64,000 nt of DNA from Chara braunii (Eukaryota > Plantae > Charophyceae): positions 5,115,588 through 5,179,587 of the forward strand of contig BFEA01000007.1 in NCBI GenBank assembly GCA_003427395.1, written 5' to 3'. Position 1 is the stretch's first letter, and every line of letters starts with the position of its first letter. Below are positions 30,901 through 63,619 of this stretch, one piece after another. The translations under genes and the position numbers were made by a program. Below the pieces are notes generated by a model. The model was given only the letters and a program-made list of their open reading frames with translations. It searched no databases and was not told the origin of the DNA.

Positions 30901-31509
30901 TAAGTGTTGACACCGTAGTGAACGCCACTGATGTTAGACCATTGCCGGTGTCGGGACAGGTGGGTCCCGAGATAAGTCCTGACCCTTGAGAAGTGGTATA
31001 TGGCGGAATTATGCACGACAGAGAAAACCGGAGGCAAGAGGGGTAGAAAGGCTAAAGGCATAAGTGTCGACACCTAGGGACCTAGAGGTTGCCCTGGGTC
31101 GCCGGAACCACTGGACCAAGAAAAGACTAGCGGAACAGCAAGCGGCGAAGGGTCGCAAGAAAATAGCGAAGGCAGCCCTTCACCCCGAAAGGAGGACCGT
31201 CGGGAAAAGTAATGCCCTGGGATGCGTACCGTAGGAAGAAAAGAATCAAGGAGGATGAGAAAATAATAAGTGAGGCACCGACGCGTGAGAGCTTAGCTCG
31301 GGCCAAGGGGGCCACCAGGATGCAGCATCGGAAGGGCCAAAGGGCCATGGGCCAAGTAAGGGGCCGCGGCCGGAAAGATCGATGCGCGCGGATATGAGAA
31401 AGGCGAAGGGAATGAGGCCGCCGTGGGGTGGAAAAATGTCAAGAGAACCCGGGACACCATGGGGGAGAGTGTCGGGGACCACATGAGACCAAGTAAAAAT
31501 AATGGTATC

Positions 31510-31735
31510 CGGGACAAAGTGTCGGGGACCACCGGCGGGGCAAAGTGTTCGGGACCATCGACAGGACAAAGTGTCGGGGACCACCGGCGGGACAAAGTGT
31601 CCGGAACCACCGGTGGGACAAAGTGTCGAGGACCACCGACAGGAGCGAGTGTCGAGGACCACCGGCGGGACAAAGTGTCGGGGACCACCGACGGGAAATA
31701 GTGTCGGAGCCCACCGGCGGGACAAGTGGCGGGGA
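31510..31735 (+). repeat. 26-bp tandem repeat, ~9 copies
   Basis: GTGTCGGGGACCACCGGCGGGACAAA, period 26 (31519, 31545, 31571). Confidence 0.9.
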
Positions 31736-34700
31736 CATGAGGTCTCTAGAAGAACTGCGGAGCGGCATGAGCGGAAAACAATTAAAGCAAGGTGCACCAT
31801 CAAGATCAAAGATCTTGACGGCCGAGAATATTAGCACCACTAGTGCAAACACTAATGGGAGCAAACAGGAAGACCAAAAGGAAAAGAAAAGCAAAGAAAC
31901 ATGAAGATAGAGGCATGGGAGCAATCCGAAAAATCTCGGATTGACCTCCTCAAGAAAATGGAGCCAAAAGAGGCTCCATGAAAAAAATAGGCCTCCGGGA
32001 GAAAATCGAAGTGGGAGGGGCCACCGTTTGAAATAAATAAAGGCAAACGGAGGCTCTCATGAGCATGAGAAAGCCACAGTTGGAGTCCGAGAAATAACAG
32101 ACTGCCCCTTGAGCATAGGAAGGGCCAAAACTAAGGAGGGCCTAGAAAAGGGCCTTAACGGCTAGTTGACACTTGACACGCTAGAAAAAGAAAAAAAAAA
32201 AAAAATATGGGAGAAAATGGAAGGTGAGAGGGAGTGAGTTGGCCGTCAGTAGGGACTGACACAAGTAGGGACTGGCAGGTCCCTACTGTCCAAGAAAGGA
32301 GGAAAAGAAAAGAAAAGAAAAATAAGAGAGGAGAGAAAAAAAAAGAAAAAGAAAAAGGACCCAGATTCATTCCGGCATGTGCCGGTTACAAAGTATCTTG
32401 ATTTTCTCTTGATTTTGCAGAGAAAATCAAGAAAAATCAAAATCAAGAAAAATCAAGGCCCCTTGCAACCGAGATACAACGGATTACAAGGGGAGGAGAA
32501 AACACATGTTTTAGGACCATCCGGAGCCAACATTGAGCCCGGATGCACTTGGAAATTGACCGCTTAATTTTCTTTTAGTTTTGAGCAAGCTGAGGGGCAA
32601 CGGGACAAGGAAAATGACCCCTACTGCGGTCCGAGTTGCAACAGACTGCATGGGGAAGGCAAAACACATGTTTTAAGTGCAGTCGGGGCCAATATTGAGC
32701 CCGGATGCACTTGGAAATTCAGCAGTTCATTTTCTTTCAGTTTGAAGCAAGTTGTGGGGTTGTGGGACTAGGAAAAATGGCACAGTTCCAGTCCGAGAAA
32801 TAACGGACTGCATGGGGAAAGCTAGGCCAAGGGAACACGAGTCGCGACATGCCCACGAGGCTAGAAAACGGTGTCGTGGGCATAGGGGAAGTGAGACGAT
32901 AAATGGTGACCGCGAGATGAGGATCTCGCGGCCGGAAACAATCGGCACACGTGACACATACGGGGAGAGAAAATTGGGCCTCATAGGGACAATAAGGTGT
33001 CAAATAAAAATGGAACGTCAACCGGGGCAATAACGGCAGGGTTGTCACGCGGGGATCCCCGGGGCCCAAGCCGGGGTAGGGGTATCACCCCCGGACCCCC
33101 GCCGNNNNNNNNNNNNNNNNNNNNNNNNNNNNNNNNNNNNNNNNNNNNNNNNNNNNNNNNNNNNNNNNNNNNNNNNNNNNNNNNNNNNNNNNNNNNNNNN
33201 NNNNNNNNNNNNNNNNNNNNNNNNNNNNNNNNNNNNNNNNNNNNNNNNNNNNNNNNNNNNNNNNNNNNNNNNNNNNNNNNNNNNNNNNNNNNNNNNNNNN
33301 NNNNNNNNNNNNNNNNNNNNNNNNNNNNNNNNNNNNNNNNNNNNNNNNNNNNNNNNNNNNNNNNNNNNNNNNNNNNNNNNNNNNNNNNNNNNNNNNNNNN
33401 NNNNNNNNNNNNNNNNNNNNNNNNNNNNNNNNNNNNNNNNNNNNNNNNNNNNNNNNNNNNNNNNNNNNNNNNNNNNNNNNNNNNNNNNNNNNNNNNNNNN
33501 NNNNNNNNNNNNNNNNNNNNNNNNNNNNNNNNNNNNNNNNNNNNNNNNNNNNNNNNNNNNNNNNNNNNNNNNNNNNNNNNNNNNNNNNNNNNNNNNNNNN
33601 NNNNNNNNNNNNNNNNNNNNNNNNNNNNNNNNNNNNNNNNNNNNNNNNNNNNNNNNNNNCCCGCCAACACTCAACCCCGCCCCCGCCAGCTGTTGGTCCC
33701 GCCCCCGGCCCCGCACCAGCAGCTACCCCGGTCCCATGAGTGGTGGGTGTGGCCCCACGGGGGGTCCGGGGTGGGGCATAAAACCCCATTTTTGGGGTTT
33801 AGCCCATGTGGTGCGCGCTCTCACTGCGCACCCCCCACTATTTTATTTATTTATTTTATTCTTATTATTTTTTTTGGGGGGGGGGTCTGGAACCGGGGTT
33901 GGGGGTGCCCACCCTCGGACCCCCGCCGGGGCCCCGGGGCCGGGGCTCGACAACCCAGGATAACGGGGACTAAATGGGCCCAAATAAAAATTGTCGAAAA
34001 CTAAGACTTTGTCGGCGGCACCACCAATGGGACAAATAAATGGGACTAACATGGAAAAGTGGCGGGGACTTGAAGTGTCCCAAGAAAAACCATGAGCCAA
34101 TATGGAAAGCAGTCGCACAAACCAAATGGCATTGTCAAGATCAAAGATCTTGACGGTGAAAAATATTGGCAACCACTAATGCAAGCACTAGTGGAAGCAA
34201 AATGAAGAACTAGGAGTAAAAACAGAGAAAAAGGAGTGATGGGAGGGTTGCCCAACAGTCCGTGATATCTTGGATTAGCTAGGCATGAGAAAATAGAGCC
34301 CCAAGGGGCTCAACACAAAAAAACGGTAGACTAACAGAGGCAAAATGAAGCCCCCATGAGCATGGGGGCTTCATTATTGTAATCCAAGATACAACGGTCA
34401 ACAGTGGAATCTGAATCTGGCCACAGATCCAGATCTATGGCCTAGAAAAAGACTCAATAGCCACTTGACATTTGTCACATCAGAAATAAAAAAACACAAA
34501 AGAAAAATAAGAGAAACTGGAGGGAGAATGAGACAAAGGGGGAGAACATAGTGGAGGAGAATATGTCGGTCAGTTGGGACTGACACAGTAGGGATTGACA
34601 GGTCCCTACAGTGACCTCATCCCTCTAGATTTGATGGAGGGTAATCCGGATTGCAGAGATATGGCCCTTGGGGCATTATCTCTGCAATATCTGAATTAAA

Positions 34701-35977
34701 AAGGCAAAAATGAAAGTAAATGGACGACTTTCTTTAGGGTCATGGATCTGAGATTCAGATTCATGGAGGAGGTAATTTAACCGTTTTTTATGTAGTCAAC
34801 TCAAAAGGCCAACTCTGGAATGAGTTGGCAGCCCAAAATGGAAAGAAACAAAAGAAAGAAGAGTCCAAAATTGTGCATTTGGCCCAAACAGAGGGTCAAA
34901 TGCACCCAAAAGAGGCCTTTGGGGCCCAAAACTGAAGCAACGAACACCATGGGGTAGCTCGGAATATTGCTGGCCTTGGATCTCAGCCCGATCCAAGGCT
35001 GAAAAGACACCGCTGCATGGGAAAATATCTTGGCCTACCCAAAATGGGCCAAAATTAAAAAAAAGTCGAGAAAAAGGCCTTTCTTTCGTAAGGCTGCCCC
35101 TTGGGCCTTTGGACTCAAGGGGGCAGCATTTCAAAAAGGAGTAAAGGCTTGAAGAGGCCCAAGGGGCAGTCCGAGTTGGTACCAACCACTCGGACTGCAT
35201 GTACCTGGCTAAAATAAGACCCAGGTGCCCCCAGAGAGGCCTAGTGGTGAAAATTGGCCATGGGGGTACCTCGGTTCACCTTGGGGCACATGGGGAGGCC
35301 CATGGGCTGGCGGTGTGCTGGTTTCACCCTACATAAGCTGAGGATTCAGTCCGCCACACTCACATTTGCATGCGGAGTGTCCATGCTGCTAGGATGAGCC
35401 CAAGAGAGCACCACACTCACTTGGAGTGAGGAGAGGGGAACCCCTGCCAGTTTGAGAGATTAGAGGAGACTGTGAGCTAGTGTGAGGAACTCTAGAGGCT
35501 AGTGGTAGTGAGGCTGGCCTAGGAGGGTGGTCCGCTATAGCCCCCAGGCTGTGAGGAAGAAGGCAAGGCTAGAGAGAGTCTCATGAGTCCTCCTAGAGGG
35601 GAGGACTCCATAGTCATAGTGATAGGAGTTTGTTGCAACTTGAGGGAGACTGAGAAGGGGAAGTGAGAAGGGTTTGAGGAAGAAGAAAGCCATAGCCAAG
35701 TGAGCAGGAGCATCTCCAAGACTGTTACATCAACTCCAAGACCCAACAGGAGGTGAGTGGAGAAAAGGGAAAACTTTCTTCTTCTTCTTCTTCCTCCTCT
35801 TCTTCGTCTTCTCCTCCTTCTTCTTCTTCCTCCTCTTATTCTTCTCTCATCCTCCCATTTTTCAACATCCACACTTTCTCTTATCTTCTCTCTCTCCATA
35901 GATGCTTTCCAAAAATTAGTATAGATAGTAAGGGGCTTCTCCACTAGTAATGGACTCCCCATTATCCGTTTCTTTAG

Positions 35978-36486
35978 TCTAGAGTAAATCGCTACTTTCC
36001 CTTTTGTGTGTATGGACTCAAAAGTGAGTTTCACTCACTTTCTCTCCATGTTTTGCTTCATTCTTCACTTGGGTGTAAATCGCTACTTCTTCCTTTGCTT
36101 ATTATAGTGTTCTAGTAGTGTTGAGCTCATGCATTGTCTATTTCTTCACTCTAGAGTAAATCGCTACTTCCCCTTCGGTGTGTATGTGCTCAAAAGTGAG
36201 TTTCACTCACTTGCTCTCCATGTTTTGCTTCATTCTTCACTTGGGTGAAAAATCGTTACTTCTATCTTTGCTTATTTTAGTGTTCTAGTAGTGTTGAGCT
36301 CATGCATAGTCCATTTCATCACTCTAGAGTAAATCGCTACTTCCCTTTTGTGTGTATATACTCAAAAGTGAGTTTTACTCACTTCTGCTCTCCATGTTTT
36401 GCTTCATTCTTCATTTGGGTGTGAATCGCTACTTGTGTTCTTACTTTTCCTAGTGATCCAGTAGTCATGAGCTCATGCATTGTCCA
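35978..36486 (+). repeat. ~172-bp tandem repeat, 3 copies
   Basis: TCTAGAGTAAATCGCTACT at 35978, 36150 and 36323. Each unit has two AATCGCTACTT subunits. Confidence 0.92.
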
Positions 36487-36534
36487 CGGTTCATGTTAAG
36501 TCTACCTGTGCTTATATCTTGCAGCTATTAATGA

Positions 36535-36790
36535 GGGATGGGTGACCGACGCTTGGCTGCTACTGTTGTTCGATGGGTGACCAACGCTTGGTTGCTACTG
36601 CTGTGGGATGGGTGACAAGCGCTTCGCTGCTACTGCTGTGGGATGGGTGACCAGCGCTCGGCTGCTACAGCTGAGGGATGGGTGACCAACGCTTGGCTGC
36701 TACTGCAGCAGCTGTGGGATGGGTGACCGGTGCTTGGCTGCTGCAACTATGCGATGGGTGCCCGACGCTTGATGTTGCTTGATTGCTACT
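36535..36790 (+). repeat. 35-bp tandem repeat, ~7 copies
   Basis: GATGGGTGACCAACGCTTGGCTGCTACTGCTGTGG at 36537, 36572, 36607, 36642 and onward. Confidence 0.9.
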
Positions 36791-36929
36791 TGATTGCTGC
36801 AACTATAGTCGGTGACTGCGTGCTTGGCTACTGCTGCTTCTTAGGCTAAAGGCCTGGTCCACAACCGCTGACCGTTTGGCATGATCTAGGGGTTCACCAT
36901 CCACCATCTTCTTTGCATTGTCCCTAACT

Positions 36930-37735
36930 CCTCCATCTTCTTCACCCACCCACCATAGCTAACCACCTCACACCTTCTTCCTCTTCCGTTTTTTTCACTC
37001 GTCCACCATAGCCAACCACCTCACACCTTCCTTCTCCTCCACCATCTTCACCCATCCGCCTTAGCCAACCATCTCACACCTTCTCCCTTCTCCATCTTCT
37101 TCACCCATCCACCATAGCGAACCACCTCGCACCTTCTTCCTCCTCCTTCTTCACCCATCCACCATAGCCAACCACCTCACACCTTCCTCGTCCATCTTCT
37201 TCACCCATCCACTATAGCCAACCACCTCACACCCTCTTCCTGCTCCATCTCCCCCATCCGTCCACCATAACCAACCTCCTCGCACCTTCCTCCTCCTCCA
37301 CCTTCTCCACCCATTCACCATAGCCAACCGCCTCACACATTCTTCCTCCTCCATCTTCTTCACCCATCCACCATAGCTAACCACCTCACACCTTCTTCCT
37401 CCTCCATCTTCTTCACCCATCCACCATAGCCAACCACCTCACACCTTCTTCCTCCTCCATCTTCTTCACCCATCTACCATAGCCAANNNNNNNNNNNNNN
37501 NNNNNNNNNNNNNNNNNNNNNNNNNNNNNNNNNNNNNNNNNNNNNNNNNNNNNNNNNNNNNNNNATCTTCTTCACCCATCCACCATAGCCAACCACCTCA
37601 CACCTTCTTCCTCCTCCATCTTCTTCACCCATCTACCATAGCCAAACACCTCACACCTTCTTCCTCCACCATCTTCTTCACCCATCCACCATAACCAACC
37701 ACTTCACACCTTCTTCCTCCTCCATCTTCTTCACC
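36930..37735 (+). repeat. ~53-bp pyrimidine-rich tandem repeat
   Basis: CCATAGCCAACCACCTCACACCTTCTTCCTCCTCCATCTTCTTCACCCATCCA units. The same repeat occurs inverted at 63745-64000. Confidence 0.92.
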
Positions 37736-39111
37736 AAGGATTGTGGTCGACGAAGCACCAAACCGCAAAGAGGACCTTAGGTAGGACGGTAGGACAAGTA
37801 GGGGGGTAAGTTTGATTAGGCGTAGGAAGTTTTTTCTCCCCTTTCCTATCTCTTCTTCTTTCCTCTTCCTTCCTCCCCTCTTCCTCCTTCTCCCTCGTTT
37901 CTCCTCCTCTTCTTTTTTTCACCGCCGCCTTCCTCCTTCCATCTCCACTTTTTTTTGCATCCCGAAAACCTTGGGCTTACCCTTCCCTCCTCCTTTCTCT
38001 TGGCATGTGACTAACCCTCCTCCACTCACTTGTTACATTGTCAGGGAACGAACGGTGAAAGAAATCAGTCCTCACTTGGTGGAGAGAGTGGGCAAGGGAG
38101 GGGTTGTCGGTCCCTTGTGCCGCCAAGAAGGAAAGGGAGAAACACTTGAGAAATTGGGAGGGTTACGCCCTTGAGAATTGAAAGGAGGGAAAGAGAGAGC
38201 ATGACGCAAGGTCGGTTGACTCAACCATTTCCCCGACTGCATGACTATGAAAAGAGGATGGAATGATTGAGCAAAGGAAGGAGAATTAAGGGAAACCAAA
38301 GAAAGAAAAAGAAAAGAAAGTTAGGCATGTGGGAAGGGTTGTGTGTTGACCCCAATGGGGGATTGTATCGGTCTTTGCCTTTGTGTGGGATTGCGCAGGT
38401 GAGTAAGCCTTATGATGTCTTGAGCGGGACCGGGCCGGGAGAAACCGGACGACAAAGGAAGAGGGAATAGGGGGCAAAGGGGCTAAGGAGCCCCCAATGT
38501 AAAATCTACCCATGAAAGAGACCCTTGTGTATGAGATCTGGAGTGCGAATGAAAGAAAGGAGTGAAACTTTGGCTGATCGGAATGTGAAATAGCGTGTGC
38601 ATGCATATGAAGGCCCTAAAAGGACTAAGGGGCTTGCACCAATGACGATGGATGGAATGTGTGGGACACTAAGAATGCATAGAGGCGAGGGGGAAGACGG
38701 CGTCGCCGCACCCCGATGATGCCATAGGGCTGTTGTGTTTAGGGAAATGGTGCGTGGCCTAAGGATGACACTTAGCCTACGCACAAAAGAAGAGGAACTC
38801 TCAAAGAATCCGTGGACTGCCTACGTATTGGAAGGAGCATTTGCTTGAAGAACACAACCAAGAATCAAACAATCAGCGCTTGGGGAATGACCAGTGAGAC
38901 TGCCACCCGGTGCGAGGGCTGAGCTATATCCCCAATGTCAAGCTCTCTCACTCGACGGCCCACCCCGATCCATCTCAAAGCACTAGGTGGGGGTGACCTT
39001 CGGACGAACGGCCCGCACCCTGAGCGTGAGCGTGGGTGGGACGAGCCAACTGGGACCCTCAGTGGGGTCGATAAAGGCTCGAAAGTCTATCGGGGTTTGG
39101 CCCTACAAAAA

Positions 39112-39122
39112 TGGTGGAGGTG
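39112..39122 (+). promoter_or_regulatory. Primer-binding site, tRNA-Ala type
   Basis: TGGTGGAGGTG 4 nt after the LTR-terminal CA, complementary to the ...CACCTCCA-CCA end of eukaryotic tRNA-Ala. Absent after the second LTR copy at 62428. Confidence 0.7.
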
Positions 39123-40419
39123 ACAGGCATGGGGTTAAACTGACCCTTGTGATCCCGAGGGGGGCACCCTACGCAAGACCGTGTACACAACTAAAGAGAA
39201 GGAAATCGAACTTGTGCTTGCTCTTTCCCTTGAGAGAATCAGACTTGAGGGTGGTTGGGCGCATGACATGGCCTGGCCTGGAGGTATAACATGCATGTTG
39301 CACACTTGATCAACTTGCTCCTTTGTGGAGTAACTCTAGCCCCCCTTCCTCCGGTGTTGGTGTTCTCCAGTCCGGGGAAGATTCGGGCAAGTCGCAGATC
39401 GACCCTTCCTCTTCGTATGAAAGAAGGGCTCCGGTTACCTGGCAGGCGGTTGGTACTTCGGCTTCGGTCGGGGTCCAATAAAAATCCCGCGGTGGAGTGA
39501 TCCGTCCGGCTGGGTGTTTTTCTCCCTTTTTCTTCTGAGCCCAGCGGGCTCATGCACTATACACTTGAAATGCTTGAAGGAACCAACATGAACACAAGGG
39601 TCATCGAGAAGGAACAATCCTACCCTATGAAAGGACAGACGAAGGAAGACAAAGGGAATGAAGGGAGTTGCCAGACTCCAAAAAAAACTAGCTCACCTTT
39701 GAAGATGCTCACGAGAAGGAACCAGCCACTGTGTATGGACAATAGGGGGAGTAGCACACACAGTCCTGAGAGAAAACTGTGAGATTTGGGTAGGTTGTGT
39801 CGGATGTACCTTTGGGAAAGGCACTTGTTCTATGTGTGTCCCATTTGGGACTTGTGATCTGCATGAGAGGAATTGAGCGTCCTGCCTTTCAGAAGGAAAA
39901 GATGGGTCTGCACCAGCTGGTGCGGGATTGCGAAACGTCGTTTCTATTGTAGTGTCGCCACGTCCCAAATGCAGAGGTAGGGCCACCGAGAAGACGGACA
40001 GGAGTTGGTCTCGCCGGTTGATTAGTAGCACTCTCTCCCAGGGGCACCGAGCATGGCTCGACACCTTGCCCAGGCGGGATGCGAAACGTCTTCTCAGGCG
40101 GGGCTTTAGCTTGTCGGCTGGCAGGGGAGGACCACTGCACGTGAGGCAGGGAGGGAGCCTCGAAGACAATTAGTAGCGTCCCGTAGTACGGTTTGGGAAA
40201 GGCTGATTCTTATCGGACCGATGGAAGTGAATTCCCGGACGACTGACTTTGCTCCTAACGGGGTGCGCGGGTTGATTCCCGGTACCAACGGGGTGTGCAA
40301 GAGCGGCAAGACGGGATGGGGTATTTTGGGCAAACAGAGAGGGGTAATGCCCTGTGCCAGAGCCTGGGTACCGCGCTTGCGACGGTTGAGTTGTGCTTGA
40401 GGTATGGGATAAAACTCTA

Positions 40420-41267
40420 CCGACGGTAACAGTGGAGAGACCACTTTGGGAAAAAGGCCGGTGAGGAGATGACCGTGCCGTATATGTGAGATTGCCTGAG
40501 TTTTCGTGTTTTGTATCCCCCTCTGTAAAGATGATTGTGACATGAGCCGTTGGGGGGGACTATGATTCTAGTCTATTCTCACCCCCTGCGTAAGTCCGCA
40601 CGAGTGAGTAAAGATCGTGAGACGAAGAGATAGAGGTCAGCTTGAAAGGAACCGAGAAAATGAGTTTGGTGATTTGGAATTTCGGAGGACTGTGGAAGCT
40701 CGAGGTTGGATCTACTTGTCCAAGGAAGGGGAGAACGCCATGGTGGTAGATTTGGCGTTAGGGATAGCCCCGTACCGATTATTTAGGCGGGCGGAACGGG
40801 AAGGAGTGTGGGCTGCATGTCAGCGAGTGGAAATGGAAATGGAAAAGATAGATGTGCAGGTGGAGCTCGGAGATAGAGGGAACGTAAGGCGGCCGCTCAG
40901 GACAATGAGGTGCACTGTGCCTCCGTTCTTGGCGGACGCTGTCTTCGGGACCCGGAGTAGGCTGGTGCGGATATGCCAGTCCATGACGAACCTCGGGTTG
41001 TACCAGGGCGCTCAACAGGACTTCTTCCGTCTATCGATCGAAATGGGACCCATCAAAAGAAATTGGGCAAGGGAACTAGCCGAGATATTAAACTGCCTCA
41101 GCACGGATGAGGTATTTGTTCCAAGTTCCGTTAATTGGAAGATAATCCATAGGAATGTGGCGATACGGGAAATGTTTTTGGACGGGCTGAAAGATCTATG
41201 GTACGTGGGAGAGGACGATCTTACCGATGAAGATGAAGATGATGCAATCGAGGACTGGGACTTTTGA
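40420..41267 (+). pseudogene. Unknown accessory protein, paralog 1 of 4
   Basis: ORF 40617-41267 with GWIYLSKEG...LALGIAPYRLFRRA...FFRLSIEMGPIKRNWARELAEIL...IIHRNV. Disrupted N-terminus (RPLWEKGR*..VYVRLP) from ~40420. Confidence 0.7.
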
Positions 41268-41325
41268 GGAAAGGGTCCGCAGGGCAGAAACGATAAGGGT
41301 GGTCGGCGTTGTGCAGGGTACCAAC

Positions 41326-42078
41326 ATGGCTAGGGAACAACGCTTAAACAACCGGATGCTTATGGGGTGGGAGCCAAGACAGTTCGAGGGAGGAGTAGAG
41401 ATGACCCTACCAACAAGAAATGAATGGAGAGGAGCGATTTGTGACAGGGTAGGGGAAGCGATCGCATCAGAACTATCGTTTCTATGGGTAGAACAAGTAT
41501 GGAACCCGTTGAGAGAGCAAGAAGGATGGGGCGAAATAGCTGAGGGAAGTGTAGAAGCCCTCGGGACGATCTACTTATCAAGAAGGGGGTGGCATCTGTT
41601 CTGCGTAACGCTGGCGTCTGGGCAAGACCCAATGTGGATCTTAGGAGGGGCCGAGGGACGGACCCGAAATATGGGCTACGAGTTCGCCAACAAAGGGTGG
41701 GATGAGGTAAGTAGTAGCGTTGCGATAGGTGGGTGGGAGGAATTCAGGCTGCCGTGCGAGATAGTTCAGGCCTGGGTGCCGCGTTTCGTAGCAGACTGGT
41801 TTGGAGGATACGAACACATCCTCTCGGTGGCAAAAGCCTTAGACGAAGTAAACTTGGACTTTTCATGGCTAATCGACGCTTACTACAAGATCTCATTGGA
41901 AATGGGACCGTTCCACGGGGATAGGGCAAAAGAGGTCGTCGACATCCTGAAATGTTTTAAGGAAGACTGACTCGAGGTGGGCGACAGGGCCGGGGATGCG
42001 AAATTTCGCCGCGAGTTGGCAGCGACCCCCTCATATGTAGGAGATGTGTTCCTATTGTTTGAAGTACTATGGGTATAG
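41326..42078 (+). pseudogene. Unknown accessory protein, paralog 2 of 4
   Basis: ATG at 41326. VEMTLPTRNEW...GTIYLSRRGWHLFCVTLASGQDP...YYKISLEMGPFHGDRAKEVVDIL. One stop at 41968, then homologous FRRELAATPSYVGDVFLLFE in frame. Confidence 0.8.
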
Positions 42079-42278
42079 CAGAAAGACTAGCGCGTAGGCA
42101 AAAGGGGGGGACGGGATCAGAATATGTATGAAGAAGGGACAACGTCGGGAACTGAAGTACATTAGGCGGGAGAACGGTACCGCCGAAGGGAAAGAAGAGA
42201 CTAAACCGGGAAAATGCAATTTTTTTTCAATGGATGCAGTAGCCGGTTGGAGGGAAGCGCGGAGAAAGACACCACAAA

Positions 42279-43042
42279 ATGACTAAGAGAATGATGCTGT
42301 GGGAAAATAGGCCTCGAGAGATCTTGTCGCCTGGCAGGGAAGGTAGCAGCGTAGAGATAAGTGTGCCGACGAGGAACAGGGTGAGCAACCCGGTAATGGA
42401 CTGGGTTGGAATAAAGTTGGTAGAAGATACGGTGTACCTAGTAGTGGAATTGGAAGGGAATTCGGGGGCGTGAACTTGGATCTTCCGGGACGCGTACATG
42501 CCACGGGTTCGCTGTACCTGTCAGAGGAGGGGTGGCGCACCTTTGGGATCACCTTGGCATCCGGAGGAGACCCCGTACGAATGTTTGAGAGGGCTTGGCA
42601 AATAACCTGGCAAGAGGGGTTCGAGTTCGCAGATCCGGAACGAGACGATGTAACAGCCGAAGTAGGAACCGTCATGGCAGGAACCTTTAACCTACCTAAC
42701 TAAATCGTATGGATGAGTCTGCTTCCCTTACTACTAAGGCAAACGCGAGGTGTATAACGAGTTGAGCAGGCAATAGCGGCACTAGCTAGGCTAAGCTTTG
42801 AAGAAGCATCGGTGTATCAAGAATACTATCGGGCCTTCCAGGAGATGGGGCCCTTTGAGGACAAGAGGAGGCACGAAATACTAAGCACATTACGGGTGAC
42901 TGTAACTACTAGACCAAGAATCCCGCTAATAAGTGATGAAACCATGTGGAAAGTCATTAGGCGCGAAGTAAGTCGCGAAATGACCTACCGAGATGATGTC
43001 CAGCGTTTGTTTGAGCCACCGGAGGAGGAGGCAGGCCAATAG
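42279..43042 (+). pseudogene. Unknown accessory protein, paralog 3 of 4
   Basis: VEISVPTRNRV; GSLYLSEEGWRTFGITLASGGDPVRMFERA; YYRAFQEMGPFEDKRRHEILSTL...IRREVSREMTYRDDVQRLFE. One frameshift, two stops. Confidence 0.8.
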
Positions 43043-43177
43043 AGAGGAAAGGAAAAACAAGGGAAAAAGAAAAGATGGGGTAAGAGGCAGGAGGATAGCT
43101 AGCAATGTCCAGGGGAGCGGATGGAATAAGAGGGATTCACTTTCTGTCTGAACCATGTAGGAACCCACCAACCGGCA

Positions 43178-43959
43178 ATGGCGATGAGACGCACCCGAAC
43201 GTCGCGACGACCCACACACCCTCGACCACCCACAGAAAGCAGTAACGGATGGGAGGTGTCGCTCCCGGCGAGCTACGAGGTCCGAGGGATTGACACGGAA
43301 TGGAGAGTTGTGACCTTGGGGAGGGACCAAGCCTTCATGATGGTGGAATGCCTGTAAAGCGGCATGAGGTTCAATAGGGGGCCAGGAGACGACTTATACA
43401 CTGACCTGAGGATGAACGGGACCATGTATTTACCTGAGATTGGATGGCACATGCTAGGGACCGAGATGGCACTAGGGCATGGACTGCTGCCAATCTTCCG
43501 GAGGGCGGCTAGGGCACTAAACCGGATAGGCCAGGAAGTTCGGGGGAGGAGAAATGTGGGCTAGGAACCCGGGTGGAAGTAGGAGGATGGCGAGAGCTTG
43601 CCCCAATGGCAGGGTTGCGGTGCCGGGTACCCTGCTTTATGATAGATTTGGTATTCGGCAGCCTCTCGAGGGCAAGGGAACTGGTGAACTCGACCCTAAC
43701 CTGGATTCACCATTTCCAGCCATAGACAACGGGAATGTTTTACGATGTGTCGGTAAGACACGGGCCGTTTTGGGGAAATCGGGCCCGTGAATTACTAGAA
43801 CTCATCGAGATTCTGATATTTGGGGCTCCACTCTTGGCTTTTGAAGAATATGAGCCGATAATTATCAGAGAAATAAGAATGGGGGAAAACTACCTTGCAG
43901 GGGTGGCTAGCCTATTCGAGGAACCTAACGAACATGACGGGCCTGAGGAACCGGTGTGA
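43178..43959 (+). pseudogene. Unknown accessory protein, paralog 4 of 4
   Basis: WEVSLPASYEVRG; GTMYLPEIGWHMLGTEMALGHGLLPIFRRA; FYDVSVRHGPFWGNRARELLELI...IIREIRMGENYLAGVASLFE. Frameshifted. Confidence 0.75.
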
Positions 43960-46029
43960 GAAAAATGTCGGGGAAGGTGGCAAAGGTGAATTCTAGCTAT
44001 GGAATGATAGAAACAAAAGCAAGGATAGCGATCTGCGGGGGGGTAGTGGCTGGAGTCCTACTCCATCTAAGGGTGTGCCAGGAAGGGACTAGGATGGCCA
44101 CTACTACCAAGGACACCAGGGGTATCCAAAGGCTGGGAAGGCAAAAGGTATCTTCGAAAGAAGGACCGACCCGCCATGGACACGTCGCCTTAGAACCGAG
44201 GCACGGTGGTGACAAAAACACCGAAACCCGGCAGCGGGCTTTCCGACAGGAAAGGCAAGCGGTGTCGAGCGCATCGGTCCGGCACCGCACAAAACGGGGC
44301 GGGACCCTCCCGGCCGCGTCACGCAGGAGTTGGTCTTAATCCTCGTCATGAATACACATGGAGCTTTCGCAAGCTGCTCCGGCTGAGTGCGCCAACCATA
44401 CCTCTCGCGAGCCCCTACGATAGGATAGGGCCTACGCGAGGCACGACTTACCTCCACCTTGCGGGAGTTGTCACCTCCCTTCGGTGGGCGTATCCCCACT
44501 GAGCTACCAGTCCACAGTACGAAAGCTGATCAGTTGCAATCGCAGAGGTGGACCAGCCGAGGGCGTTTCTCGTACGTTGTAGCATAGGGGGTACGCGCGG
44601 TTTTACGCCTCTATCGGACCCGCACGCGAACCAACATCTTGGGGGGCTGAGGTCCCAAGCGCGACTCGTCGCCGGTCGACTAGGACGCATCCCACGCACC
44701 TACGCGTACTCCACTCTAAAGAACATAAAAAATAAAACGCACACGCACATATACATATATATACAGAACGACACAGAACAAACAACGCGACAACACTCCT
44801 AGTCCCTTAGTAGCCATCCCATAGCTCTCCGATGCGGAAATCGAATAGGCGTCGCGCGCGAAATTTTTGTATAAAACCGCGCGGACGTAGGGCTAATTCA
44901 TATTGTCTAGCAATGCATGAATACACAAGCAGTCGCAATGATGGCGTATTATGCAGTGCCCATAATCAAGCGGTTCCTCGTGGATCCGAGTACCGCTTAT
45001 GACACTAAGCGTCAAACTCGAAGTATCGTGAGGGTCTACCCGTTCACGATATTGCACGGCTGAAGGAATAGCCGTGCGGCCTCCACAGCACCTCGGACCT
45101 TTAGGCTGAGTGTCCCGGCAGGCAGGGCAATGAGACTCTTCGCGGGGGGTGATCCCTTCCATGCAGAGTCTTGGACCTGGGATGTCCTGGACAAGGACCT
45201 CGAACGTTCGACTAAAAAATCTTTAAGAAGTATCGACAATAAAAAATGGGTCCTCTTTCCTTTCTCAATCTTAACCCTAATTAAACTCTTAAGCGTGGGC
45301 CCCTTAGGCCACACGAATACTTAATATAAGTACATACATATATATACGTACAGGAGGTATAAGTATGTGACGATCACTTCTCACAATCACAGTGGGACTC
45401 CTCACAACCATATATATGTGTGTGGTCGCAAGCAGTCAAATCCAAAATCTGAACCACAGTACATACCTGCATTCATATCAAAGAGTCAACCAAAAGTTCA
45501 CGCACTACACGGAGTCAACTTCAACCAACCTCTATACTCATACCCCTCGCTTTAGCCATGCAAGCCCCAACCCTTGTCCAACCAACCATAATTAAATACT
45601 CAGTACCTTTGTTAAATGGCAATTCAATAAAAGTCCGGGTGAAAACTTTAATAAAACAACAAAAATCACCAGGGCTAAAATCTTTTAGGTTGAGTATTGA
45701 GGATAAATTGGAGTTGAGTCGTAAACTGACGGATCGACAACCGACCAGTTATCAGTAATAACAGAAGGTGATCCTTGTAGGATCAAGCTGCATCTAGTCC
45801 TGATTTCGAATCAAACGTTCAAGAGGACCTGTAACACAAAACAGACCAATCCCAAGCTAAATTTACGAGTCCAAATCGAGAGTAATCTCCATATCACGAT
45901 TTCACCAAGAATCATCCTACTTAACTAATCCCGAGTCTACCCCTAAGCCAGTGCCTAATGAAAAGGTAGACCTGAGAATCTCCTCTATATAGAGTGGATT
46001 GTCAGACCTGCCACCTGTCAAAATATAAT

Positions 46030-46570
46030 CTAACTCCTCTAAACCAAGAAAATTTCGGCATCGATTCTCGCAGGAAAAGTGCCTTCGCAGAATTTATACT
46101 AACTCAAATATGAAAACGAAACAAACTCTAAATTTGGAAAGCCAAATTTTGTCTAACTCCCTGAATTAGCAAAAATTTGGGCAACACTCTCTTTAGAAAA
46201 GGAGGCTTTCCAGATTTTTACTAGGTCAGATAGGAACTCGGAAGGTAGATTTGAGTTCGATTTTAAGACAAAGTTCAACTGACCCCTTAGATTTGTAGAA
46301 ATTGGCAACGCTTCCCGTAGAGAAAGTGTTATTCCAAGATTTATACAAAGCTAAGTTCAGAATCTAAAATGACTTTCTTCTCAAGGTCCGATTCTGTGTA
46401 TTAGCAAAAATTTGGGCAGCACTCCCTTTAGGAAAGGAGGTTTTCCATATTTTTACTAAGCCAAAAAAGTCAAAAAAATTTGGACCCTGAAAAAGACAAA
46501 ATATGACTAACTCCCTGGTTTTGTAGAAATTTCGGCAGTGCTTCCCGTAGAGAAAGTGGCTTACCAAGAT
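46030..46570 (+). repeat. ~120-bp alternating repeat in LTR family 1 (copy B), 5 units
   Basis: AAATTT(C/G)GGCA...(CCCGTAGAGAAAG or CCTTTAGGAAAGGAGG) units at ~46050, 46172, 46297, 46407 and 46527. Confidence 0.75.
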
Positions 46571-46869
46571 TTACACAAGACCAAGTATAATAAATGATCC
46601 CCAAAAATGCAGAAATCGACCCAAGTAAAAATAAACTTAGCTAAAAAAATGCAGGAATTGAAACTAACTCCTACGACTCTAGCACGTGGCGAGCAAGTAA
46701 AACAACTACCTATCAAACTGAAACTCAAACTAAGTAGTAGTCGCCCTCAGTCTCATGCAAGCCAAACCACAAAGGTAAGTACTCTCACCATCCCAAAGTC
46801 AATTTATCAAACAATAGTTCATAGTCTCTCAATGATTTATTATCCCTTTGTACCCAATTTACATAGGGC

Positions 46870-47595
46870 ATAAAGCCAGACCACCCAAACTTATGGAACA
46901 TGTCTAGCTCAACCATTAAGTATACACAAACACAGGGCACAACAACTTTTCTCTTCTTTGAGCATATGACTAGGCCACCCTAGTCGCCCTGAACTGTTTA
47001 AATACCCCAACTTTATATAATTGTCTGCACTTAGTCTTTTGAGGTAGCATATAACTGAACCGATCATCTTTAGCTCAAGATTCAGTCTGCCCCTTCGTAC
47101 TACACGTTTATTCTTAATTGGTACTCTCTTCATTTGGTGATAAACTATAATTAGACCACCCAAACTTATGAAACCCTGTCTGACTAGCCTGTTCATAGAT
47201 AAAATAGTAGTAAGGTATAACCAAGTTATAACCTTCTGGTTCCAGCATGTGTGTGGCGTTGGACCCAGACCACCCAAACTTATGAAACATGCCTTGGTCC
47301 TCAGCCTGGTTCATTTCTCTTAAAACCAAAGCAGGAAGAGGCTGAGCCACCAAAACTTATGAAACCTCCTCGTTCAGGAGCGAAAGAAACTGAAAGAAAC
47401 CCAAATTAAACAAGGCGACCAAGCCACCCAAAGTTACGGAACATGCTTGGTACCTGAAAAGTCGTTCACAACCAGCCCTCACAAATCAGAGCAACCAGAT
47501 CACCCAAACATATGGAACATGTCTGGTTCCCCAGGCAATTCAAAATAAACATAGCATTGGGCCTCCCCAAACTTATGGAGACTTGCCCAACCTTT
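46870..47595 (+). repeat. Hairpin-motif array (CCA-AACTTA-TGG core), ~7 copies
   Basis: Loops at 46888, 47163, 47277, 47354, 47431 (variant), 47507 (variant) and 47570. Positional homolog of 12355-14340. Confidence 0.85.
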
Positions 47596-50500
47596 GGTTG
47601 ACCCAGTCAAACAAGCAATACTGCCTTCCTCCCATCCTTCCCCCAGATGCAATCCCACAATCTGCTTTCAGTCAAACAATAATACTAAAACTGATATTGC
47701 GCATACATTCCTTTACTTAGTCTGAATCATGTCCTGAAGTCAAACTGAAAGTCCAAGTAGGGATACAAACAGTATACTCAGTCAAACTGTAACAAGAAAT
47801 ACAGAAAAGGGTTATAATTGGGTTTATAGAGGGAAAGCAAATGATTACCTCTCAGTTCCCTGCCTCCAGAACTCCCGAGTTCTGGTAGAGCTCGCACAAT
47901 CGGTGGGTTGACTCCTCATAGAGTCTTGCTGCGGTCCTACGGGTTGCAATACCGCCTGACGCCTTCCTCTCGTAACAAGACTAGACTTAGATTAAGAAGG
48001 GCATAAGCAGGGGTTTGTGGCTCTCGAGATACAAGAGAGGGACTGACTCAAGTCCCAGGAGAGGGCTTTGTGATCTTCACGCGCCTGAGGGCCCTGCAAT
48101 AATGGTCGAACAACAACAAATTGGTCAACTGGAGTCAAACTGTCGAAGTAAAACCTCTGTCAACCTCCTCGTCTGCAGCAATGCCCCCCCTTCAACAACT
48201 CAACCCCTCCGCTGATGTAGCTGTCCGTTAAACAGGTAAGTCTTTGAACTCACCGCTGGCCTTACCCCAACAGTTAATGAACGAGCCGCATATCGATCAA
48301 TACGAATGTTCCAACCTCTCGACTCTTGTTCGCTGTTTTCAACAGCCGTCTGCCTGCGCAGTCCGTCAGCAGCTCTGCTCAATGCGGCAACAGATTGGCA
48401 TTGTGATCTTGCCGACCAGGCAGCAGGGAGGTCACACGCAGACAAAGGTTACGTAGTCCTCACTATGCTTTGGTCAGTGCGCCTTTCCGGTTGGGTTCCC
48501 GCCACCTCACTCAACACGATGAGTCGTGCATTGGCCTGCTTGCAGCCTCGCTGCTCCGCTCACGCGACTTCCTCGATAGGATGAGTAACGCACCAGTCCT
48601 ATAGGTGATTCTCCAAATCTCGCTTCCAGATCCGCGCTCCCTTGATGAGCCTTACGCAGGCCAGGGGGTGAACTTCCTATCCCGCAACTCCCTCCACGTT
48701 AGGAAGGACGCGCCCGCAACATCGATCAGGAGGATTGCTACTAGGGAGTTGAGGTCGGCAAATGTTCAATCATGGCGCTTATAGGATAAGCGGCATCACT
48801 CCAATAATATCAAAGACAAACAACAACCGTTCCTGAGAACTTCGTGAAGACGATCAGGGTATGCCGCACAATCCTGTTAGCGGCACCCGTGATTCCGACC
48901 AAAAAGCCTGCACGGACGAGACGACTGCATAGGCTGAACCGGTTGGAGGAACAGAGGTGAGAACTAGAGAAGAAGATGGCAATCGATGAACCCACTATCA
49001 TGAGGGCGGACTCGCCCAACGATGGCGATCACGGGCTCGGGAATGGTGACGCGAGCTCGGCTCACCACTCACTAGCACGCAATACGATCATGAACCTTCT
49101 ACTAGAACCTCAACACATGCGCCGCCTCGGAGGTGTGCTATTGCTCAGGAAAGGTCGCGCAGCCTATTTACCTCATTACTACCTATTCACTAACATACTA
49201 GTTGAACTAACGCTATCTTTAGGTTCGCACCACCTAGAAACCTCTGACTAAAACTTTACTCCACCTGATTCTACGAAGAATCAAGGGAAATACTCATTTC
49301 GCACTCCCACCATAACCACTCTCACAACTCCTCCACGCACGTCCTAATCCTCCTACCTCCTTCTCTGCTTCCTCTCCGTTCAATCTAACTTCAGTTTCGT
49401 GTTCACCCTTCCTCAAAACCCCAGCTTCAAGCTCTCCCCCAACGGTTTTCACCACGAAACAGGTAAGTTCTGCTATCTTCCCTCCTCGTTCTTCCTTCTC
49501 TTCGACTCCATCGCGCACCTTTATTTCCCTTCTATTCTAAAACTAACCTTTGAACTCCAAATCTGACTGCAGATCTGGGTGCGCCCGACCCAAAGACCCC
49601 AAGTAAGAGTCCTCCACTGCCCAACTTCGTTAAGAAACGAGCTCCCCGTAGCTTCCTACTCCGCCATGGCTTCCTACTCCACGACTATCTCCTTTCCCTC
49701 CCTTCGGTCGTCCCTGGCATGTTTCCGTGTCCAGGTTCATCCTCTTGTTACCGCTCTCACCGCTTCACCTCCGGTCCTGTTACATTCACATTGCGCTATT
49801 CTTCACTCCTCTAGCTCTCCTACGTTCACTTTACTCCTCCCGTTCCCACGACTCTGCATGCTTCTTGGCAGCCCTCCACTCGTAGTGCACGCTCAATGAC
49901 TTCCATGAATACAGCTCGTCAGCCCGAGTCGGTCTGACGGGCGCTCTTGGCGGAGTCAGCTCCTATACGACCTGATTTTGCTCCTCGTCCCTACACCTCG
50001 GTCCCAGCGGGCGACCTGTACATTAGTCCGCGGGTGGGTCTTCAACTTCCCATTTTGTGCCACTCCCCCCTAAGGATTCGAAGTGAACCTAGTCCCCGCG
50101 GCCGCTCTCACACCTCTTCTACCAGCAGTATTGGCAGCCCTTCGACTGCATTGGTGAGCCTCTCCCCCACGCTACTCTTATCAATAGAGGTAGCGATTTT
50201 CCAAACGAACTTTCCGTCAAAACAAAGAAATATACAGACGCCTTTCCTACCTCGTACCCAATGAGACAGCGCGTATCTGCTTCTGTTCACCAGCGCACAA
50301 CCCACAGGCAAGTATTCCAATCTCACGGCCTCTCTCATGCCAGATAGGTAGGTCTCAGGCCCTGCTGCTGTCCTTAGAGAACCTGGTCATCCTGAGGGGA
50401 GCTTCGGATGGAATCGGCCCAGGTCCATCGGCTAGTCCTTTATCCCTATTACCGCAGACCTCAAGCGGTGATCGGTAAATCCTCGGTGGGTCCTCCCACT

Positions 50501-51021
50501 CAGTTTTGTACGTAAGTTGGCCCTCAGGTTTGCCCTTTCGTATCTTATAAGAGCACCAACCGAGCCGGCTGAGAAGGAGGGTCGTAGCCCCTCCTTAATT
50601 CCGCCAACGTCGCCCCGAGGCCCCCTACATCGTCGCCGCTGACCTCGATCCCTAAATTTCTTCAATGAAAATTTGGCGCTGTAACCGCTAGTGCCAGGCC
50701 CAAGTCTTGGTCTAACTCTGACGGACACCTAAAATAAACCAGTACTGCGCGACGCGCAGACCTACCAAAAATGATCCCAAAATCAAATGGTTGTCGATGC
50801 CGTCCTTCGCATGCATGCATAAGTCACAAATAAACACACCAATCAAGTGACAGAGTCCGTTTAATCCTAACTTAATTTAAAAAATAAAACTCAGGTCTGC
50901 GACTACGCCGACTTTCACAATCATTAAAAAAAAAAGAATAAAGATCACGTGCGCCTCAAATCTGCGCGCCCACACACTCTCTACTCTAATCATTCATCCA
51001 GCCAACGTAAACCACAGACGC

Positions 51022-51031
51022 TGGCGCGCTT
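51022..51031 (+). promoter_or_regulatory. Candidate PBS (tRNA-Arg-like, TGGCGCGC)
   Basis: Lies 5 nt after the inferred LTR end. Only the first ~8 nt fit a plant tRNA-Arg 3' end. Confidence 0.45.
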
Positions 51032-51938
51032 CGTGCGGAATACTTAAACTCTAAACCAAACCTATTTTCTGGCGTTTTGCAAAAACTAGGGTCGATACCC
51101 TTGTAAGGGTATTCGCACCGACAGTGATACCCCACAAAGTAAGAAAAGGCAGACAGGCCTCTTACGACCACTATAAAACAGAAAATATTGAAATAGCAAA
51201 GATGGGGAGACTGTAGCAAACCCTAGGGCCCGAAAATCTGAAAAGTTGTGAACAACCGCCCATCCAAGGGGAGTCGGGGCACAGAGAAGGACGTAGACCA
51301 CAAAGATGGGAGACTGTAGCAAATCCTAGGGCCCGAAAATCTGGAGAGCTGTGAAAATTGAAAAAAAAATTCTCTTATGTGCAGGATTAGAAAAGGATGG
51401 CGACGGAGGAGGAAGCAGGGAGCCTGCGAAGCAAGGGGAGTCAGGGCACAAAGAAGGACATAGAGCACAACGAGGGGTCCGAGGGAGCAAACGAGGAACT
51501 CAAGAAACTAGGGGGGATAGGAATAAAGGCAGTCCGACGCCACAAGCATCTGAGGGCGCGCTGTCAAAGAAGGTAAGGCTACCGGACACCCAGAAGAAAC
51601 TAGCCGAGATAGAAAGGAGAACGACGGAGTATAAAGCAAAACTCCTGAAGGAGATGATGACCGGAGGCGAAGGGGACTTCGCCGGAGACAGGCTAAAGGA
51701 AAATCACTAAACAAACCAGGGGCGGGGGAGCCAAAACGATACTATAAAAAGGAGGAAGGATAGCACTGGGGAGCATAGGGGGACGCCAACCAAGAAAGGA
51801 AAGGAGAGAACGGAGTCCCCAGGAAGGGAGGCGGAGAAAGCTACTAACCTGTCGGCCATAGACAGCGGGACAAGCCGACCCGCGGTCTCGCCCATAATCG
51901 CAAGAGGATGCGAAGGGCTTTGGAGCTTAAGAGAAAGG

Positions 51939-53686
51939 GTGTCAGGTTGGTTCGACCCGGAAGGAACGACAAAGCCCGGAGAAGTATCGAGAACCGGTAA
52001 GGAAGAACAAGGCTATGGCACCACCGATGGAACAGGAGGAGCCGAGGGGGGGCTTAAGAAAATGGTCTCTTCCCTCACACGGGCGCTAAATAAAAATCAG
52101 GGATACTTGGCCGATGCCAAGAAGAAGCTGACATTCGAGGGGGCTAATATCACAAAATTATTGATAGACTACGAAAATTTGGCAGCACTACGAAGGTGGA
52201 GCGAGGAAGAAAAGACGGAGCACTTAGGGCAGCATGTGTCGTTGAACCTAGGGAGGGACATAATGGCTATCGTCGCGACCAGCGGATCCTGGAAGGAGGC
52301 GTGGGACGTAATGATGTGGAAATATCTGGCAACCGAGAAAATGGCTACGGAGACAGAGCTGGTTGCGGTGCAAAGAAAAAACTTCGCAACATATAACGAT
52401 TTCCTGAGGGAATTCACCCTCGTAGCGTTGCGGATCCCGGGGGTAACTGATCGCATAATGAGTAAATACTTCCTCAGGCAATTCACTGAGTTCGACAAAG
52501 ATAAGATCCTATCAGCCTACCAGCAGACCACGAAGTTCATGAATACACAGGACGTCGACTTCAGCATCGTGACAGACATCGCTGAGAAGATGGTTGTAAC
52601 CGACTCATTGGCCCCGCTGAAGGAAGGAGAGGTCATAGACTTAACCGGTAAGACAGGCGATAAAGTAAAGCGAGGGATATAGAGTCTACACGAGCATGTC
52701 CATGGGGTAAATGGAAAGATCGAAAGAGTAGAGAACGCGTTGATGGTAATGCAAGCCCAAGTGACGCAAACCCAGGCAGCTCGACCCCCCCTCCCACCAC
52801 AGGAAGCGGTGGCTCCCGCAGGAATAGCTAACCGAGGGGTCAATAGGAGAGATCCGACCAATGAGCAATGCAAGTATTGTACGATGGTCGGACACTCTGT
52901 GCGAGCGTGTCCAAGACTTAAGCATGATATCATGCACAAAAGGTGCTCCACGACATTGCGAGGGGAGATCATAGGCCCCCAAGGAGAGAAAGTGAATTGG
53001 AACTCCCTGAGTGGGATGCGCCGGGCCGTAATCGCACTTAACAACCTCGACGTCGCCACAATAGAGGCCGAGCCCGTGGCGGAGCTCGCCTGGGAACAGG
53101 CGCGAGGACGCGGGCCGCCGACCAACTTTATTTTAGAAAATGACGGGCGAGATAGGGTGAACGTGACCACCAGGTAGCGAACAGCAGAAAGGAACGTCAT
53201 ACAGGACGTCGTCATGGAAGATGCTGGGGATGGCAGGGGATGCCGCAAGAAGCCGAGGCACAGGAACAAGAGAAAGTGTACGGGAAACCTAGAGAAGAGG
53301 CTCCGGTAGACAAAACAGCCTCGACCAAAAAGAAATTCTAGTATCAGATCCCCATTCTAACTATGTCCGAGATCGATGACACCCTTAGCAAACTTCTAGG
53401 GACCATGGTGTCGGTCTCTTTTCAAACCATGTTGCAGGCAAGTCCTAGGCTCCTAAAAGGCCTTAGGCAGTTGCTCACGAGGCGAAGAATAGAGGAAGAA
53501 GAAGGGCCGAAACAGCCGCAGGAAGAGAAGGAAGAGGAGGCGCCACGAGAAGTTGCCAACCTCCAAAGGATCCCCGGGGACCTGGATAAGCTAGAGAAGG
53601 CCTGCCAGACCGTGAAGGTGGCGAGGTTTCATGGGCACCACCAGGGACAAAACTTAGCTTTCACGCACTACCGGTGGGTAAGATGA
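51939..53686 (+). pseudogene. Gypsy gag (several stops)
   Basis: LTFEGANITKLLIDYE capsid-like region. Zinc knuckle CKYCTMVGHSVRAC (CX2CX4HX4C) at 52869-52910. Confidence 0.85.
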
Positions 53687-53720
53687 AAGTCCAGATCGGA
53701 AGCCACCACACCACGGAACG

Positions 53721-53793
53721 GAGGGTGTAGTTCAAGTGGTAGAACGCATGTTTTGCAAGTATGAAGTTATCGGTTCAAGTCCGATCGTCTCCA
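53721..53793 (+). tRNA. trnA: tRNA-Ala(UGC), organellar type, within NUMT (probably non-functional)
   Basis: Cloverleaf with D-arm GTTC/GAAC, anticodon loop TT-TGC-AA, T-arm ATCGG-TTCAAGT-CCGAT. Acceptor stem has a mismatch. Confidence 0.85.
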
Positions 53794-53805
53794 ATTTCCC
53801 CGTGA

Positions 53806-53867: not shown

Positions 53868-53911
53868 AAAGTACGAAATTGGAAAGACACAAAATGGTTA
53901 GTGAAGGGCGA

Positions 53912-63553: not shown

Positions 63554-63619
<66 letters not shown>

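Follow-up and report, generated by a model that had tools for sequence, protein, structure and literature searches.

Four paralogous genes upstream of gag in a Ty3/Gypsy retrotransposon of Chara braunii

The 64,000-nucleotide stretch of Chara braunii contig BFEA01000007.1 analyzed here (positions 5,115,588 to 5,179,587, forward strand; hereafter the window) holds a dead copy of a Ty3/Gypsy long terminal repeat (LTR) retrotransposon that carries, between its primer-binding site (PBS) and gag, four consecutive same-strand units of about 250 codons each. These units represent a new protein family carried by an LTR retrotransposon. Taken together, the data suggest that they are accessory genes held in fixed order, each expressed from its own spliced mRNA and yielding a soluble host-interaction factor, a composite reading that we hold at about even balance.

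The four-unit cassette and its relatives

An initial annotation, made from the letters of the window, had described four collinear units on one strand with clear likeness in protein but not in DNA. Both descriptions hold. A tblastn search with a C. braunii protein (P0001) matched all four units on the forward strand (E-values 4e-93, 8e-17, 3e-11 and 5e-10), and nothing else in the window fell below E 1.7. As protein, the units are 23-30% identical to each other, and all 6 unit pairs score 130-223 against maxima of 53-60 in 300 shuffles each, whereas the corresponding DNA scores are 21-29, with shuffled sequences averaging 21-22 and peaking at 26-36. Over 1,282 aligned codon pairs, identity at codon positions 1, 2 and 3 is 0.42, 0.51 and 0.29, compared to 0.28, 0.26 and 0.27 by chance, in a protein-guided alignment that somewhat favors positions 1 and 2. 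Furthermore, 42 of 155 fourfold sites are identical between units, which is chance level, indicating saturation of third positions. Because positions 1 and 2 are conserved while silent sites are at chance, the units bear the signature of an ancient duplication maintained by purifying selection, as the initial annotation had proposed.

None of the four units is intact in the window copy: unit 2 has one stop, and each of units 3 and 4 carries a frameshift plus two stops. Unit 1 can be aligned only over 40671-41267, its first ~70 codons, known from other copies, being unrecognizable here. Its start had been placed at 40420 and is better assigned to the ATG at 40542, which opens with MSRW where other copies read MARW or MVRW.

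To place the cassette among its relatives, we compiled 43 proteins by exhaustive search and 13 more by profile search. All 11 non-Logan proteins examined among the 43 are C. braunii gene models on different scaffolds, all 13 profile-search additions bear C. braunii names, and unit 2 matches CBR_g4576 at 57% identity. The association with the element recurs elsewhere in the genome, since same-family gag/pol (45-88% identity) lies downstream of a unit in 36 of the 43 relatives. Unit order is 1<2<3<4 in all 13 models with more than one unit type, these copies being automated gene models that join pieces, drawn from a library clustered at 50% that favors such chimeras. A tree of 39 unit sequences resolves one clade per position (support 100/97 to 100/100), with identities of 48-91% within a position and 15-35% between positions.

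Conservation of the cassette can be set beside that of the core genes. Over 214 pairs drawn from 25 models, mean identity is 67% for unit 3 and 68% for gag/pol, and the two rise and fall together (rho 0.45, a value that none of 2000 label permutations reached). Covariation is expected because whole elements share descent, and the informative part is the equal level of conservation.

P0002, a Logan protein with a complete 252-residue open reading frame (ORF), shares 35-38% identity with unit 2 and falls next to the unit 2 clade in the tree, with support dropping to 89/85 when unit 4 is left out; a protein word search found no relative of it, and 114 pattern matches in metagenome contigs yielded 0 confirmed cases. 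P0011 is a single gene model with two unit 1 copies and gag/pol on both sides; it is probably two nested elements, and possibly a five-unit variant.

Layout of the element

The features of the element and its surroundings are as follows.

30949..39107, forward strand: 5' LTR, 3' end established and start predicted, with tandem arrays of 26, 162, 172, 35 and 53 bp
38399..38404, forward strand: candidate splice donor GCAG/GTGAGT within the LTR, conserved in the second copy; use not seen in RNA
39112..39119, forward strand: PBS of tRNA-Ala type, 4 nt past the LTR end, with 8-nt complementarity to the tRNA-Ala 3' end including CCA
40402..40407, forward strand: second candidate donor, in the leader; leader exit point in other copies' gene models (P0043, P0049, P0053)
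40542..41267, forward strand: unit 1, acidic tail, N-terminal part damaged in the window copy; clade u1, support 100/100
41326..42078, forward strand: unit 2, 1 internal stop; acceptor-like TGCAG 9 nt before the ATG; clade u2, 100/97
42279..43042, forward strand: unit 3, frameshift and two stops; TGCAG 39 nt before the ATG; clade u3, 100/99
43178..43959, forward strand: unit 4, sole basic paralog, frameshift and two stops; TGTAG 17 nt before the ATG; clade u4, 100/99
44263..51123, strand not assigned: nested insert, bounded by TG...CA, most likely another family's solo LTR and not the element's own
51397..58556, forward strand: gag and pol (protease, reverse transcriptase (RT), RNase H, integrase), broken; TGCAG 12 nt before the gag ATG
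53713..54390, strand not assigned: organelle-like insertion with tRNA-Ala(TGC), splitting the protease region
58963..59929, forward strand: extra-ORF remnant past integrase, resembling the C-termini of P0016, P0019, P0027 and P0040 and unrelated to the cassette
62428..64000, reverse strand: 3' end of a further LTR copy resembling that of the element, a head-on insertion with no PBS after it, 69-77% alike to 37572-39107

The 3' end of the LTR at 39107 is supported by the second, minus-strand copy in the window, whose homology reaches exactly that base, and by heterogeneous loose ends that begin there in 47 contigs (agreement 0.4) and 29 RNA reads. The sequence TGGTGGAG at 39112 provides an 8-nt match to the 3' end of tRNA-Ala including its CCA, in agreement with the initial annotation of LTR end and PBS. 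As in Ty3/Gypsy LTR retrotransposons, the PBS adjoins an LTR that ends in CA, the order is gag and then protease-RT-RNase H-integrase, and the nearest solved relative is Ty3 Gag-Pol (E 9e-28). CCGG flanks the second LTR copy, and the loose ends at the LTR end start with CCG. Summed contig depth over the LTR-end region (38924-39121) reaches 70,835 in run X1, at least 20x the depth in every cassette bin (97-3,428). Such an excess would be expected from numerous solo LTRs, although depth does not equal copy number.

A giant LTR had also been proposed, and of this the size is plausible, while the start is a prediction. Among 619 TG sites in 27300-38000, only that at 30949 combines a 7/9 inverted-end match with an NCGN flank, and a purine/skew switch occurs nearby, at ~31000; TGTAGGG at 30052 ranked lower as a candidate. 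Counted from 30949, the LTR would span 8,159 nt including 633 N, a length of about 8.2 kb that nested DNA may inflate. The internal region extends over at least 15.8 kb, and the full element, whose 3' LTR falls beyond the window, would come to ~32 kb if the start at 30949 is correct. For comparison, the largest LTR element given in the available part of an 80-species survey is 24.1 kb (PMC6317226).

The rest of the element had been considered cut off at 44263. Instead, gag-pol of the same family resumes at 51397, past an insert of 6.9 kb (44263-51123) that is 70-80% alike to 11873-16864 on the minus strand and in which, between 44300 and 51376, none of the family's gene models match. Without the insert, the end of unit 4 and gag would be 576 nt apart. 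We interpret the insert as most likely a solo LTR of another family. We rejected the possibility that it serves as 5' LTR to a different gag-pol element, as no PBS follows 51123 and the gag belongs to the cassette's family. Two observations weigh against the nested-insert interpretation: the flanks, GCGG and GTGA, match a 4-bp NCGN duplication only imperfectly, as if decayed, and the junction 44262/51124 was not seen in any read. Separately, 44263-51123 and 11873-16884, which have diverged from one another, represent a second family of large LTR-like sequences and contain internal repeat arrays; like the cassette family, they lie at CG-containing 4-mers, which suggests that the two families share an NCGN target preference.

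Further downstream, protein matches in the protease region end at 53712 and resume at 54393/54437, around the organelle-like insertion, which also contains a second tRNA-like stretch 84-89% alike to bacterial records. The fifth extra ORF (58963-59929), which includes a W-rich motif, is conserved in 4 of the other copies' gene models and matched no Pfam family. Outside the element, a palindromic sequencing-adapter junction, which we take to be Nextera mate-pair, appears to have been left in the assembly at 9812-9850.

Protein products and their expression

To explore the nature of the unit proteins, we performed structural predictions with AlphaFold. In the confident model obtained (23 alignment rows; pLDDT 76, pTM 0.70), a mixed sheet and accompanying helices make up an N-terminal domain (~residues 15-150), the C-terminal region is helical, and the N-domain of window unit 2 folded alone (33 rows) shows the same elements. 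Foldseek returned no match at E 0.001 or better for the whole model in the PDB, nor for the whole model or N-domain among viral folds, where no movement-protein or capsid match appeared. With VIA-align, whose typical background best is Z 7-8, the highest score was Z 5.3, for the helical part against CMV IE1 (root-mean-square deviation (rmsd) 5.0, 86 residues aligned). The top three N-domain matches were chimallins (Z 4.4-4.9, 101-110 of 149 residues, rmsd 4.2-5.8), the best at Z 4.9 with 109 residues aligned and rmsd 4.2; a GNAT match scored Z 4.3 with 61 aligned and rmsd 2.3, and all of these scores lie under the typical background best. The chimallin matches are a lead only, and resemblances to GNAT and to Ulp1 protease (Z 3.2-3.8) were set aside. 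Neither of the best scores, for the helical part and for the N-domain, shows kinship, and a lack of match does not prove a new fold.

Sequence comparisons were likewise unproductive. Pfam gave nothing credible for eight window pieces (E 1), the 43 proteins (E 0.001) or four unit 1 proteins (E 0.1); PHROGs and NCBIfam gave nothing credible for 23 members, with one member each at E 0.036 and E 0.013, respectively. In the ESM Atlas, unit 2 reached a best score of 0.87, a low recognition, and unit 1 had no usable match. A PDB sequence match to designed 'Pizza' propellers was discarded as a sum of ~8-bit repeats, each stretch with E ~15. These searches bear out the initial view that the units contain no recognized domain or fold.

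The columns conserved across all four units are mostly G, P, L, F and W, the only polar ones being E200, R226 and an N-terminal R. Because of this composition an enzyme is unlikely, if still conceivable, and the units are probably non-enzymatic. No transmembrane stretch was detected in them (maximum KD19 1.27); they are predicted to be soluble, unlike an env-like additional ORF (aORF), and they lie 5' of gag, whereas an env-like aORF is by definition, in the available text of PMC7264820, located between pol and the 3' LTR. Isoelectric points are 4.2-5.2 for units 1-3 and 9.7-9.8 for the two halves of unit 4.

Given that the units are soluble, probably non-catalytic and conserved like gag-pol, and that the LTR is rich in arrays, action on the host is the most plausible role. 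As a tentative possibility, the four would be non-redundant, probably non-enzymatic proteins that act against host silencing or as activators of the element. Units 1-3, being acidic, would work through protein contacts, and unit 4, being basic, would contribute nucleic-acid binding or entry into the nucleus. The host does have a silencing pathway that such proteins could counter, since C. braunii has Pol IV/V-like subunits according to the available part of PMC11194755. GW/WG motifs, of the Argonaute-hook type, are invariant at three unit 2 positions; their counts, however, do not clearly exceed those of shuffled sequences (p 0.02-0.62 across 5 tests), a point against this reading. The suggestion that the units bind the LTR arrays fared unevenly: the acidity of units 1-3 argues against it, and it may still apply to the basic unit 4.

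Alternatively, within the same architecture, the proteins could be structural or trafficking cofactors, hetero-oligomer subunits that coat or carry the particle or ribonucleoprotein and serve in nuclear export or import or in cell-to-cell movement, like the caulimovirus ORFs upstream of the capsid gene. The presence of all four paralogs in fixed order in every multi-unit model, as for non-interchangeable subunits, favors this explanation, as do the mostly structural conservation and the identity of the top three N-domain matches, chimallin being a phage-nucleus shell protein. Their Z-scores below 5, under the typical background best, and the lack of a movement-protein or capsid match among viral folds count against it, and we regard it as somewhat unlikely.

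How four units and gag would be expressed from one LTR was addressed in sequence and in RNA. The initial annotation had proposed a polycistronic module, which now appears doubtful. Between the PBS and the starts of units 1-4 lie 27, 47, 71 and 91 ATGs, and because of these leaky scanning is implausible. A TGYAG motif precedes the ATG of units 2, 3, 4 and gag by 9, 39, 17 and 12 nt; it occurs at 12 sites in 7,428 nt, and its presence within 45 nt of 4 of 5 start codons has P ~1e-4, for a motif chosen after inspection. A candidate donor, GCAG/GTGAGT, is present in both LTR copies. Because these TGYAG sites precede units 2-4 and gag, alternative splicing is likelier than polycistronic translation, and we consider it rather likely that units 1-4 and gag are served by alternative acceptors. 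Under this scheme, a transcript begun in the 5' LTR would be spliced from a donor located in either LTR or leader to any one of the acceptors that immediately precede units 1-4 and gag. Five messages with a single ORF each would result, and unspliced RNA would serve as genome.

Predicted junctions in other copies' gene models agree with the spacing in the window. Ahead of gag they lie at 2-4 residues in 11 of 15 scored (17 found), against 4 codons in the window; for unit 4 at 3, 4, 6 and 6 residues, against 5.7; for unit 3 at 9-15 residues (6 scored of 7), against 12-13; and for unit 2 at 2 and 3 residues (2 scored of 3), against 3. The stretch at 40180-40400, just before unit 1, is conserved and forms the first exon in many copies' gene models; it could encode a short upstream ORF or have a regulatory role.

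Several observations weigh against splicing. The junctions in gene models were themselves predicted, with some circularity, and in many models a unit is entered in the middle of its ORF. Unit 1 lacks TGYAG, having instead an AAG 11 nt upstream of its ATG together with a pyrimidine tract, and the unit 2 and gag acceptors have weak pyrimidine scores (7 and 8), outside the top 25 of 175 YAG sites. In three poly(A) libraries of one study, mapped on 38330-44262 with 6-13% of each run examined, we found 15, 2,398 and 14 reads from 8.9, 16.7 and 16.2 million, and no RNA read fell on any of the 15 joints listed of 207. The rich library contains mostly reads of other copies, with 35 reads matching at 99% or more, and covers all four units in both mate directions. 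Its depth does not fall past the LTR donor (~30 before, 41 after), and it tracks the DNA depth profile in both mate directions, which may reflect DNA carry-over. This library (run X6) holds ~160x more element reads than the two other poly(A) libraries, an excess due either to stage-specific release from silencing or to DNA carry-over.

The competing explanation is a single polycistronic RNA translated by reinitiation or shunting, or the use of internal promoters, with the acceptor-like sites arising by chance. The short spacers between consecutive units (58, 200 and 135 nt), the lack of any RNA splice joint and the continuous coverage across the donor are consistent with it, and plant pararetroviruses do translate polycistronic RNA by reinitiation, according to the available parts of PMC4498817 and PMC5902531. 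Against this, both the TGYAG sites and the predicted junctions are concentrated immediately upstream of the ATGs, and no viral transactivator was identified in the element. Reinitiation past long ORFs normally requires such a transactivator, and we consider this explanation unlikely. Combining the splicing and hetero-oligomer proposals, a complex-virus-like retrotransposon of ~32 kb, with five acceptors and four new-fold paralogs that assemble to shield nucleic acid or block silencing, is distinctly unlikely. It is highly improbable that the units are passenger sequence, captured or in decay, that plays no part in transposition: all four are broken in the window copy and expression is near zero in two of three RNA libraries, but gag-pol is also broken there, silent sites are saturated while protein is conserved, unit 3 is conserved like gag-pol across copies, and protein searches found no host-gene relative of the units.

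Comparison with known systems

Large plant LTR retrotransposons often contain extra ORFs, which tend to be single and weakly conserved, as described in the available parts of PMC6317226 and PMC7264820. The closest parallels are Ogre/Tat elements and Tekay with eORF-5'F, which resemble the Chara element in their Ty3/Gypsy order, in having long LTRs that contain tandem arrays, and in placing an extra ORF of ~250 codons, in sense orientation, before gag. Such an ORF is present in 21% of Ogre, 23% of TatII and 33% of Tekay elements (PMC6317226 supplement file 3). In contrast with the four paralogs seen here, these elements carry 1-2 unrelated extra ORFs in the available part of PMC6431247. Upstream extra ORFs are thus already known, and the four-paralog array is the unusual part; the available text of a review of additional ORFs (PMC7264820) describes no paralog array and gives their functions as not known. 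In a mostly non-subscription literature seen in part, we found no paper on this Chara family or on any four-paralog cassette.

Lineage markers separate the Chara element from these groups. Only RT_RNaseH and RT_RNaseH_2 appear among the families listed for the 43 proteins (5 of 19 families in the case of P0013) and the window pol, with no added (archaeal-type) RNase H, which rejects the Tat/Ogre lineage; for Ogre, marked by a tRNA-Arg PBS and a 5-bp target-site duplication, the tRNA-Ala type PBS provides further grounds, and the flanks appear NCGN-like. A chromovirus was rejected because no chromodomain follows integrase, either in the window integrase tail (E 0.1) or in gene models. Pfam scans of the Chara element proteins also revealed no plant mobile domain. 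The moss and club-moss non-chromoviruses Phygy and Selgy share other features: like the Chara element they have neither added RNase H nor chromodomain, Phygy has NCGN-type flanks and Selgy a tRNA-Ala PBS in 90% of cases (PMC6317226 supplement file 3). However, they measure 4-10 kb and have no extra ORFs, compared to the internal region and five extra ORFs reported here, and the Chara element cannot be placed with them on size or ORFs. Large array-bearing LTRs are common in non-chromoviruses, according to the available part of PMC6317226.

Among accessory genes of other elements, that for the anti-silencing protein VANC of VANDAL transposons also lies beside tandem-repeat-rich non-coding DNA, and in the available part of PMC5735166 VANC proteins bind tandem-repeat motifs and carry DUF1985/DUF287. 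The initial annotation had likened the units to VANC; membership in that family is not supported, since the Pfam scans described above matched neither DUF1985 nor DUF287. VANC is moreover a single gene per element in a DNA transposon, whereas the Chara units are four paralogs in a retrotransposon, with units 1-3 acidic.

One leader joined to many acceptors is the scheme of HIV and of the adenovirus late genes. Caulimoviruses and complex retroviruses also surround a gag-pol core with several accessory ORFs, and the available part of PMC4498817 describes alternative splicing of CaMV 35S RNA. Their accessory proteins are mutually unrelated, no sequence or fold match between them and the Chara units was found, and the Chara element differs from these viruses in combining LTRs and integrase with no env-like membrane protein. 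Burro, a giant Gypsy element of planarians, exceeds 30 kb and has accessory coding capacity, comparable to the Chara element if its LTR start is right; in the available part of PMC6431247, its known domains lie in one giant polyprotein, in contrast to four separate paralogous ORFs.

The expansion of one gene to four, with order kept and conservation like that of gag-pol, is strong evidence that extra ORFs of LTR retrotransposons can be essential and specialized. Furthermore, the units constitute a defined, soluble and foldable protein family without a known structure match, suited to structural and functional work. In a charophyte relative of land plants, they offer a direct test of virus-like multi-acceptor splicing and of counter-silencing by a retrotransposon.

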